From positions 1-38,013 of the forward strand of contig JAFXJW010000026.1 in assembly GCA_017532045.1 (NCBI GenBank): 38,013 bases of DNA, written 5' to 3'. This DNA comes from Clostridia bacterium. GTDB lineage: Bacteria > Bacillota > Clostridia > Oscillospirales > CAG-272. Under the pieces are notes generated by a model, which was not told where the DNA came from, made no database searches, and saw nothing but the letters and a program-made list of their open reading frames with translations. Below are positions 35,560 to 38,013 of this stretch, in pieces. The translations under genes were made by a program, and so were the position numbers. How positions within the stretch are numbered: position 1 is the stretch's first letter; each line of letters begins with the position of its first letter.

Positions 35560-35918
35560 CAAAAATCCACCGCTTGAAGCGGTGGAAAAGAAATCTTTAG
35601 ATTCAAGAAATAGACGTCCTATGGTATAATGATGAAGGTTCGCCAACCGCATCAAAAATAACACATAGGAGGAATGTCATGAAGGACACTAATAGTTTAT
35701 CACATTCTAAATGGAATTGCAAGTACCATATCGTATTTGCTCCAAAATATCGTCCACAGGTAATATATGGGAAAATCAAGGCGGATATTGGAAAGATACT
35801 GCGACAACTATGCGAAATGAAGGGAGTAGAGATCATAGAGGCGGAAGCATGTCCAGATCATATTCATATGCTGGTAAGTATTCCCCCGCACTTGAGCGTT
35901 GTCGCATTCATGGGGTAC
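35560..35918 (+). mobile_element. IS200-family element, left end plus 5' part of tnpA
   Basis: Left-end hairpin tccaccgctt-g-aagcggtgga (35566-35586), TGGTATAAT promoter element, GGTTCGCCAACC leader, then tnpA. Confidence 0.85.
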
Positions 35919-35948
35919 CATCATATATGTTATACCACGATTTTGTGA
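35679..35948 (+). pseudogene. tnpA: Truncated IS200/IS605 Y1 transposase
   Basis: SLSHSKWNCKYHIVFAPKYR, CPDHIHML (HUH), SIPP..FMGY then loss of homology; expected LKGKS..FW..GY and catalytic Tyr helix are absent. Confidence 0.9.
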
Positions 35949-36131: not shown

Positions 36132-36479
36132 ATGGAACTTTCTCAACGTGAATTTTTACGAAAACTTGGAAAAGAAATATGCGCGGCACGCAAACGGCTG
36201 AATATGAGTCAGGAAGAGCTTGCGGAAAAAGCCGATTTGTCGGTAACATATATTAGTAAGATAGAGTGTGGGCATAGAAATTTCAGTGTTCATACAATGG
36301 CAAAAATAGCGCAAGTATTAGAACTCCCACAATACAAAATGATAGAAGTTACTTGTTGTGAAAAATATAATGAACTACTCAAAGAAATATTCAAGGAATA
36401 TTCCTTCGATGAAATAGAGGATATTGCTCAAATACTTCAATCCATTAATAGGTTGATTGTAAAAAGACCGCTTAAATAA
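36132..36479 (+). CDS. XRE-family helix-turn-helix regulator
   Basis: GAGGT RBS; LGKEI...RKRLNMSQEELAEKADLSVTYISKIECG.RN.S; AT-rich codon usage. Confidence 0.92.
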   Translation: MELSQREFLRKLGKEICAARKRLNMSQEELAEKADLSVTYISKIECGHRNFSVHTMAKIAQVLELPQYKMIEVTCCEKYNELLKEIFKEYSFDEIEDIAQILQSINRLIVKRPLK

Positions 36480-36696: not shown

Positions 36697-37536
36697 ATGA
36701 AAAGGATTTTAGAACCAAAGAAAATGCAGGAATTTGAATTCCATTTAAGAAACGAGGAAAGGAGCGCGGCAACGATTGAAAAATATATGCGAGACGTAAG
36801 AGGCTTTGCGGCATTTGTCGGTGACGCGGAAATCGACAAGCAGAAAGTGCTTGACTACAAAAGTAAACTTGGCGAGACTTATGCGGTGGCAAGCGCAAAT
36901 TCTATGCTCGCGGCAATGAACTGCTTTCTTCGCTTCTGCGGTTGGCACGATCTGTGCGTCAAACAGTTCAAAATGCAAAGAGAAGTTTACTGCTCGGAGG
37001 AAAAGGAACTGACCCGTGCGGAATATATTCGGTTGCTTGATGCTGCAAATGCCAAGCACAATGAACGGCTCAATCTGATTATCCAGACGATCTGCGGAAC
37101 GGGGATCCGTGTAAGTGAGCTGCAATATATCACCGTGGAAGCGTTACACAACGGTGAGGCAATCGTAAACTGTAAAGGCAAGAACAGACGTGTGTTTATC
37201 GTCCCCGAGCTAAAGAAAAAACTGCTCCGTTACGTGAAGGAGCAGGGAATTAGTGCCGGAACGGTATTCGTTACAAGGGGCGGAAAGCCCATAAGCAGGC
37301 ACAGCATTTGGAAGGATATGAAGGCACTGTGCGAACAGGCGAACGTATCGCCGAGCAAGGTCTTTCCTCACAATCTTCGCCACCTATTCGCCCGCACCTT
37401 TTACGGCATTGAAAAGGATATTGCCAAGCTCGCAGATATACTCGGACACGCAAGCATCAATACGACACGCATTTATATCGTTACAACCGGCGCGGAACAC
37501 AAGCGCAAGATGGAGCATATGAGGCTCATCATATAA
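36697..37536 (+). CDS. Tyrosine recombinase (short, Xer/FimB-like, no arm-binding domain)
   Basis: AAGGAG RBS; SAM-like N-terminus (ERSAATIEKY.RD); intact catalytic set TGIRVSEL, KGK, HNLRH, LGH, TTRIY. Confidence 0.95.
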   Translation: MKRILEPKKMQEFEFHLRNEERSAATIEKYMRDVRGFAAFVGDAEIDKQKVLDYKSKLGETYAVASANSMLAAMNCFLRFCGWHDLCVKQFKMQREVYCSEEKELTRAEYIRLLDAANAKHNERLNLIIQTICGTGIRVSELQYITVEALHNGEAIVNCKGKNRRVFIVPELKKKLLRYVKEQGISAGTVFVTRGGKPISRHSIWKDMKALCEQANVSPSKVFPHNLRHLFARTFYGIEKDIAKLADILGHASINTTRIYIVTTGAEHKRKMEHMRLII

Positions 37537-37576
37537 AAGAAAAAATCCCGATGCGAACACACCGAGACCGACAGCA

Positions 37577-37656
37577 ACATAACGAGAGTTATGTCGCCTT
37601 CAAAATAACATAACGAGAGTTATGTCGCCTTCAAAATAACATAACGAGAGTTATGT
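37577..37656 (+). repeat. 31-bp tandem repeat carrying three copies of ACATAAC-gaga-GTTATGT (putative left crossover sites)
   Basis: Identical 18-mers at 37577, 37608 and 37639 separated by an identical 13-mer cgccttcaaaata. Confidence 0.92.
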
Positions 37657-37713
37657 GGTTAAAAAGTGGGAATCGTTACCAAATTCGCTTTGATGCGAAC
37701 AAAAAAGAGCACA

Positions 37714-37768
37714 ACAAAAAGCCTTTCGCCGTAATTTTTTTTAAAAAAAGTACGAAAGGCGTTTTTGT
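37714..37768. terminator. Hairpin inside the putative invertible segment
   Basis: acaaaaa-gcctttcg...cgaaaggc-g-tttttgt with an inner T8/A7 stem. Confidence 0.6.
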
Positions 37769-37833
37769 CACGCAATTTTTTAAATAATATTTAATAAATT
37801 TATCTTGTCAGCCTATAAATTTTGCCAAACCTA

Positions 37834-37862
37834 TTGATTTTTAAGCGTCTTTGTGGTATAAT
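37834..37862 (+). promoter_or_regulatory. sigma-A-type promoter inside the putative invertible segment, pointing right
   Basis: TTGATT-17bp-TATAAT with extended -10 TG. Confidence 0.78.
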
Positions 37863-37900
37863 TCCTATGTATCTGAAAAAAATATCGGATATCTAATATC

Positions 37901-37918
37901 ACATAACTCTCGTTATGT
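37901..37918 (-). repeat. Inverted copy of the 18-bp site (putative right crossover site)
   Basis: ACATAAC-tctc-GTTATGT is the exact reverse complement of ACATAAC-gaga-GTTATGT. Confidence 0.92.
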
Positions 37919-38013
37919 CGCTTTATTAGTCTTAGTGAATTGTACCCGTTCATAAAAAACAGAATCCTACTCAGATAGGAATTTTTTTAGGAAGCCGGTG
38001 TAGCGTTCACTAA

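Follow-up and report, generated by a model that had tools for sequence, protein, structure and literature searches.

An invertible promoter is regarded as a switch with two states and a single repeat at either end, and the software that finds such promoters seeks one repeat pair. The locus described here carries three copies of its crossover site at one end of a promoter segment and a single copy at the other, which raises the question of whether the additional copies take part in inversion. The window, that is, the whole stretch of 38,013 bp that was analyzed, is a complete contig (C149) of a MAG that comprises 176 contigs and is 80% complete. It was assembled from short reads, and it breaks off 95 bp past the distal site. 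We propose that the left triplet probably represents three complete crossover sites for an adjacent Xer-like tyrosine invertase that would flip a 244-bp promoter cassette, and that use of an outer site would shift units between the ends. The features of the switch and its surroundings are collected in Table 1.

Table 1. Features of the invertible switch and its neighbourhood in the window.
Feature	Coordinates	Strand	Basis
XRE-family helix-turn-helix gene, upstream of the recombinase	36132..36479	+	Pfam HTH_3, E 1e-14
Xer-like tyrosine recombinase, 279 aa, presumed invertase	36697..37536	+	Pfam Phage_integrase 3.4e-26 and Phage_int_SAM_1
Terminator-like hairpin and T-run, leftward-reading, located after the recombinase stop codon and before the array	37544..37569	-	Terminator scan
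Crossover site copy 1, outermost, recombinase-proximal	37577..37594	+	Pattern search
Spacer 1, cgccttcaaaata	37595..37607	+	Sequence
Crossover site copy 2	37608..37625	+	Pattern search
Spacer 2, same as spacer 1	37626..37638	+	Sequence, Tandem Repeats Finder
Crossover site copy 3, innermost	37639..37656	+	Pattern search
Invertible segment, 244 bp	37657..37900	.	Inverted sites at both ends
Hairpin between A-run and T-run, bidirectional terminator-like, within the segment	37714..37767	.	RNA folding
Extended -10 promoter, TTGATT-17-TATAAT preceded by TG at the -10 box, directed towards the distal end (ON)	37834..37862	+	Consensus match only
Distal crossover site, single, inverted	37901..37918	-	Pattern search
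Distal flank, putative beginning of the controlled operon's leader; contig stops	37919..38013	+	Similarity to the flanks of relatives

The pattern search placed ACATAACGAGAGTTATGT without any mismatch at the four positions given in Table 1. When up to three mismatches were allowed, no further match was found in the 38,013-bp window, and the sequence was not matched in 100 dinucleotide-preserving shuffles. All 176 contigs of the MAG together contained only these four sites, all of them in the switch. Both 13-nt spacers between the left copies read cgccttcaaaata, and Tandem Repeats Finder reported the array at 37576-37656 with a period of 31, 2.6 copies, 100% matches and a score of 162. The three identical 18-bp sites, the identical 13-bp spacers and the 31-bp period of the preliminary description were confirmed, coordinates included, by the sequence and the pattern search. 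The site itself is a 7-4-7 palindrome with the asymmetric centre GAGA. A likeness that had been noted between the right flanks of copies 1 and 2 and that of the distal site was also real: the first two copies are followed by cgcctt and the distal site by cgcttt, whereas copy 3 is followed by ggttaa.

The segment between the sites contained no ORF of at least 50 aa. Its predicted promoter was kept in the related loci L037, L030 and L007. The hairpin inside the segment folded at -21.5 kcal/mol (z -4.3) on one strand and at -27.9 kcal/mol (z -5.7) on the other. BLAST matches to distant loci concentrated on segment positions ~45-145, and this hairpin was the best-conserved part of the cassette in distant relatives, exceeding the promoter region. 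It could act as a bidirectional terminator or as a binding platform. The leftward terminator-like element was found at the equivalent place in L037, L030 and L007. This putative terminator would block transcripts from the flipped promoter from going antisense into the recombinase gene, and together with the cassette hairpin it suggests a well-insulated ON/OFF switch. Overall, the locus showed the features of an inverton, including inverted repeats around a short non-coding segment, a predicted outward promoter, an adjacent tyrosine recombinase and the occurrence of both orientations among species.

The recombinase gene ends 40 bp before copy 1, and its product aligned with profile positions 2-166 of the 172 in Pfam Phage_integrase. 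The motifs GIRVSEL, HNLRH and GH...RIY, which were picked by eye in the translation, presumably hold the catalytic residues. The top NCBIfam matches were XerA, XerD and XerC, and none reached its equivalog cut-off (XerA_Arch, 141.6 vs 220; XerD, 115.3 vs 329.6; XerC, 111.4 vs 335.15). By these cut-offs, the recombinase is not an XerA, XerC or XerD equivalog. The nearest solved structure was PDB 4a8e, an XerC-like protein (2e-17). Upstream of the gene, Pfam matches identified the XRE gene, a fragment of an IS200-type transposase and a gene for fucose isomerase; of 46 related loci, 12 also have an XRE homologue before the recombinase gene. An 89-aa ORF at 35679-35948 covers the first 71 of the 121 positions of the IS200-like Y1 transposase profile and looks like a truncated IS remnant just 5' of the XRE-recombinase-switch module. 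A further observation in the window concerns a predicted secreted or lipoprotein-like protein of 805 aa (242-2659, +) with PETTA/EPETTV repeats, which derive from 18-bp tandem repeats at 739-793 and 1315-1402.

The last 95 bp of the window matched the distal flanks of L056, L068, L044, L057 and others at 81-89% identity, and flanks of this type run on into TetR-like, SipW and TasA-like genes. In these relatives, the first gene lies 120-150 bp past the distal site and encodes a protein of ~200 aa with a weak TetR_N match. Genes for small membrane proteins come next, then a signal peptidase resembling SipW and camelysin/TasA-like proteins of the Peptidase_M73 type, joined in some loci by DUF5305 proteins or large secreted ones. 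A search of the window's MAG with the TetR-like protein of L057 as query did not recover the controlled operon; because this MAG is only 80% complete, the missing match says nothing about the absence of the operon. In the leader, 3' of the distal site, a small conserved hairpin followed by 6-7 U folds at 37955-37990 in the window and at ~4345-4375 in L037. The terminator scan did not flag this leader hairpin, which may be an attenuator.

The exact 18-mer was present in 67 loci of a species-representative genome collection. Almost all of the relevant loci came from MAGs with a Clostridia or Eubacteriales label, and in many of them the isolate name refers to sheep, yak, deer or faeces. A recombinase homologue adjoined the site in 55 of the 67 loci, with 62-95% identity where full length. 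The remaining 12 fell into two kinds: lone matches in unrelated phyla, and sites at contig ends or inverted pairs for which the DNA examined contained no recombinase (L015, L036). For the comparison of both ends, loci were oriented by the recombinase, and up to three mismatches per site were allowed. We left out L032 and L063, as they show the contigs of L016 and L045 a second time, and seven loci in which the contig ended before the distal end. Both ends could be seen in 47 loci, one of them the window, and these formed the comparison set.

Compared across these genomes, the number of sites varied from 1 to 3 per end. The proximal and distal numbers were (1,1) in 23 loci, (2,1) in 7, (1,2) in 8, (3,1) in 4, (2,2) in 3, and (3,2) and (2,3) in one locus each, so that arrays of 2-3 sites stood at one or both ends in 24 of the 47. 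Judged from this sequence comparison, the site arrays are a family trait and no oddity of a single contig. Incompletely covered loci added further examples, with three proximal sites in L064, two in L013 and three in the metagenome contig L084. The cassette had the same orientation as in the window in 24 of the 47 loci and was flipped in 20, while three were too diverged for alignment. The site centre was inverted between the two ends (GAGA vs TCTC) in every case. Across the 47 loci, the numbers were too small for any pattern between array count and orientation.

The same comparison bears on whether the third copy, or the entire array, is an assembly artefact of the repeat or of a population with mixed orientations. 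The identical spacers of the window, the short period of 31 bp and a short-read MAG contig that breaks 95 bp past the switch would all suit such an error. However, arrays with a period of 29-33 bp recurred in MAGs of several projects with differing contig-name conventions. Three-site arrays with non-identical spacers were seen in L029, L008, L064 and L084; these cannot come from a collapsed or expanded cycle, and such arrays are thus no collapsed-repeat artefact. The spacer sequence is absent elsewhere in the locus, so mis-joined parts cannot make a spacer, and the array of 80 bp is shorter than a typical short read. An artefact is therefore very improbable.

The palindromic form of the site might also point to another function, in which the 18-bp palindromes are mainly operators of a repressor, either the downstream TetR-like or the upstream XRE protein, and the array provides cooperative repression. 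A 7-4-7 palindrome is of the type bound by HTH dimers, the first downstream gene of relatives has its weak TetR_N match, and an XRE gene lies upstream. These points have to be set against the position of the sites, which border a segment occurring in both orientations, and against the asymmetric centre, whose constant inversion between the ends was noted above. In addition, L050 has an array although its first downstream gene has no Pfam match and hence no TetR, the XRE gene is limited to 12 of the 46 relatives, and a recombinase lies beside the site in most of the 67 loci. We consider that a main role as operators can hardly be credited, and crossover by the adjacent recombinase remains our reading of the sites.

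A metagenome scan gave 27 more loci. A recombinase adjoined the site in L084, L086, L087 and L092, and L073 contained the sites and the cassette without a recombinase match. The others were single matches without a close recombinase homologue, with only a distant match of 34% identity in L082 and L088. No match to the site was found in the viral contigs that were scanned. Among the genomes, the inverted 18-bp site pairs of L015 and L036 are ~260-275 bp apart, with no recombinase homologue in the DNA examined. We also noted MAGs with two site-bearing loci, on the contigs of L022 and L033, L013 and L015, L021 and L036, and L025 and L035. Both observations imply that one recombinase may serve more than one switch. 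Contigs broke inside the switch or within ~300 bp of it in the window (at 38013) and in L013, L021, L025, L033, L051, L064 and L071. Such frequent breaks are consistent with sampled populations that contained more than one orientation or partition, a mixture that would mislead assembly programs.

Use of an outer site in place of the innermost one would make the inner units flip with the cassette and land reverse-complemented at the opposite end. We compared distal spacers as reverse complements, which brings them into the same form as proximal spacers. In all five loci with arrays at both ends (L022, L028, L042, L048 and L061), one distal spacer was the exact reverse complement of a proximal one; a second distal spacer in L028 had one difference. 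The spacer cgccttcaaaata was proximal in the window, L017 and L064, and it occurred reverse-complemented at the distal end of L037, with near-copies distal in L030 and proximal in L022. Another spacer, actttcaaaaatca, was proximal in L023, distal in L040 and L044, and present at both ends in L048; it stood beside cgccttcaaaata in the array of L064. As the model predicts, variant outer-facing half-sites moved with every internal unit, namely ACGTAAC in L028 and ACAAAAC in L022, while the outermost distal half-site of both loci stayed ACATAAC beside the fixed flank.

The distribution of sites between the ends was also examined. The three-site loci comprised seven of the (2,1) and eight of the (1,2) type, and equal use of either left site predicts equal numbers. 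The seven four-site loci were divided among (3,1), (2,2) and (1,3) as 4:3:0, compared with 0.3:0.4:0.3 in the model. The lack of a (1,3) locus among the seven was not a significant difference (0.7^7 = 0.08). Taken together, the mirrored spacers, the distal copy in L037 and the 7:8 split indicate that outer sites have served in inversion and have carried site-plus-spacer units across. The cross-genome comparison of sequences thus supports the earlier suggestion that any of the left sites can serve and that sites are redistributed between the ends.

A different explanation is that only the innermost site recombines. The outer copies would then be accessory or decoy sites for recombinase binding, or neutral scars of slippage, and the matching ends would arise by gene conversion between inverted repeats. 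The inner flank of the outer sites, which is CGCYTT instead of the GATA of the innermost sites, would agree with this, and the perfectly identical spacers of the window suit recent slippage or duplication. However, a unique spacer of 13-14 nt that is reverse-complemented at the opposite end is most simply obtained by outer-site inversion, and this was seen in every both-end locus and, for the window's spacer, across species. The nearly even split of three-site loci is what equal use of either left site predicts, and gene conversion needs a pre-existing homologous tract outside the 18-bp site. We regard recombination at the innermost site alone as unlikely. Exclusive use of copy 3, a case that the preliminary description had set against its own proposal, was likewise a poor fit to the mirrored spacers and to the three-site split.

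Units are gained and lost as well as moved, probably via unequal exchange or slippage. In a tree of 42 full-length recombinases, the array state differed between close neighbours. At the nucleotide level, for example, the recombinase genes of L017 (2,1, ON) and L039 (1,1, OFF) shared 98.4% identity. The window and L057 each had two identical spacers, which differed between the two loci, and the spacer pairs in L029 and L028 were one base apart. These identical or nearly identical pairs within loci imply that units were duplicated locally. Unequal exchange between sister chromosomes, which had been offered as an alternative in which the array is a scar, suits such gain and loss and is compatible with redistribution.

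The spacing of the sites was narrowly confined. Of 35 spacers, 19 had 13 nt, 10 had 14 nt and 3 had 15 nt, with one each of 12, 11 and 35 nt; 29 of the 35 were thus 13-14 nt long despite at least eight unrelated-looking spacer sequences. The unit would consist of the 18-bp core and a spacer of 11-15 nt, usually 13-14, which gives a period of 29-33 bp, close to one recombinase-dimer footprint or to three helical turns. The Rci sfx site has 31 nt arranged as 12-7-12, according to PMC11852207, and this agrees with the unit here being one full site. According to PMC4929723, Cre/lox recombination drops sharply below 94 bp and is lost at ~80-82 bp, while Flp/FRT is still active at 74 bp. The recombinase footprint may set the lower bound of the spacing and survival the upper bound, because direct repeats of an active site at a loopable distance would be excised. 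The array would persist since its direct repeats are too close for looping deletion, and each site would still be able to pair with the inverted site at least 244 bp away.

The sequences next to the sites also followed a pattern. Spacers tended to start with CGCYTT, similar to the distal outer flank CGCTTT, and to end with AAAAYA, similar to the proximal outer flank. The resemblance of spacer starts to the distal outer flank explains the flank likeness in the window. Innermost sites at both ends run into GATA and non-innermost sites into CGCYTT, and the latter may therefore be poorer substrates. The likeness between spacers and flanks might be attributed either to arm contacts of the enzyme or to the origin of the units.

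In the mechanism that we favour, the adjacent recombinase would be the flipping enzyme, and all of the sites in the window genome would be active today. The cassette is predicted to be ON here and to point at an operon whose counterparts in relatives specify a signal peptidase of the SipW type together with fibre proteins resembling TasA and camelysin. As outer-site use moves units, the window would show one of the three ways in which four sites can be divided, (3,1), (2,2) and (1,3), each either ON or OFF. The preliminary description had proposed that the array might tune the switching rate, place recombinase-binding roadblocks or hairpins in a transcript leader, or give a multi-state output. 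It is conceivable, although we hold it to be doubtful, that the partition forms a heritable and reversible register on top of ON/OFF and sets the rate or bias of flipping, through the number of site pairs p x d, or the output.

One route by which moved units might affect output, namely that a moved distal unit creates a terminator in the leader, gave a negative outcome and stays speculative. Folding of the RNA from the promoter through the array gave one hairpin per site, and in L037 the outermost distal site formed a stem of 14 bp. The terminator scan of L037, L030 and L007, however, flagged none of these hairpins, and the palindrome was extended in only ~6 of 13 distal arrays, as counted by eye.

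Contigs assembled at k=31 from four public runs provided weak hints, among them a suggestion that both orientations occur within one population. Copies of a 31-bp repeat cannot be counted in such contigs, and related strains are a possible source of them. Joints with sides of 30 letters or fewer were excluded as possibly coming from related organisms, and three observations were kept. In X2, one contig of 137 nt had the window's left flank joined straight to one site and the cassette (2 differences, 1 gap), which weakly suggests a one-site left end in a nearly identical lineage. In X5, one contig of 302 nt with 5 differences had 11 nt of the spacer followed by a site, the cassette, the distal site and then the reverse complement of the same 11 nt. 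Two arrangements would give this contig, one with an array at each end and one in which ON and OFF forms, each with a proximal array only, coexist in that sample. X1 had copy 3 followed by the flipped end of the cassette (11 letters).

Among known systems, the locus resembles fimS with FimB/FimE, the switch of the E. coli type 1 fimbriae, in combining a short promoter segment, an adjacent tyrosine recombinase and a surface-fibre operon. fimS has a single inverted repeat at each end, whereas the ends here have 1-3 close-packed identical sites whose distribution between the ends changes. The locus also recalls Xer/dif dimer resolution, since the nearest families of the enzyme are XerA/XerD/XerC and the short palindromic site is asymmetric in its middle. 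It differs in scores far below the equivalog cut-offs and in sites that are inverted around a promoter, in contrast to a single dif.

Shufflons provide a further comparison. The R64 Rci/sfx system, as given in PMC11852207, also has more than two crossover sites, one tyrosine recombinase and alternative pairings, and its sfx of 31 nt is the same size as the repeat unit here. Four sites are present in our locus, and outer-site use would allow alternative pairs, as indicated by the mirrored spacers of relatives. The alternative coding ends of a shufflon, which belong to pilV, were not seen; the non-coding spacers are 13 nt in the window and 11-15 nt in the family, with one of 35 nt, and the sole cargo is one promoter cassette. 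In addition, Rci has a further domain at its C-terminus, whereas the enzyme here is a 279-aa Xer-like protein, and unlike those of shufflons the sites here are tandem and abutting.

Among natural invertons, group 139 of the Clostridia with tyrosine invertase group 35 comes close, as it consists of promoter-sized invertons of gut Clostridia with a nearby tyrosine recombinase, and an example has ~206 bp between 25-bp repeats (main text of PMC11892184). The terms 'tandem' and 'multiple IR' do not occur in that main text, which the comparison here covered; the repeat motifs are in the supplement. In synthetic Cre/lox barcode cassettes, as described in PMC4929723, same-orientation sites under the looping limit cannot be excised, so that the cassette is stable in size while longer inversions go on. 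Those cassettes are engineered and use Cre, whereas the arrays here are natural, with another recombinase and a promoter as cargo.

Our literature search found no description of tandem, end-swapping arrays of crossover sites on a promoter inverton, although the supplements of PMC11892184 could hold related motifs. It also found no invertible promoter for TasA/SipW operons. The preliminary description had known of no inverton with such a layout, and the search agrees with it. The new part is the movable arrays of crossover sites. In its working, the switch is otherwise comparable to promoter invertons of the fimS type and, as regards alternative sites, to shufflons.

These results have several implications. 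Half of the loci in a widespread Clostridia family of the animal gut have extra close-packed sites, which have swapped ends during evolution. Extra sites that change ends make several structural states per orientation possible at one locus. Arrays of this kind can break assemblies, as at the end of the window contig, and could make inverton callers report overlapping invertons. Their layout shows how direct repeats of an active site persist through spacing under the DNA-looping limit. To our knowledge, engineered lox cassettes are the only earlier use of this principle. If the partition does act as a register, packing below the looping limit would be a trick for array stability, and the family would represent a naturally occurring recombinase device with multiple states, akin to synthetic barcodes and state machines built on recombinases. 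If the number or partition of sites alters the flip rate or the output, the arrays would provide a new way of tuning the phase variation of surface fibres.
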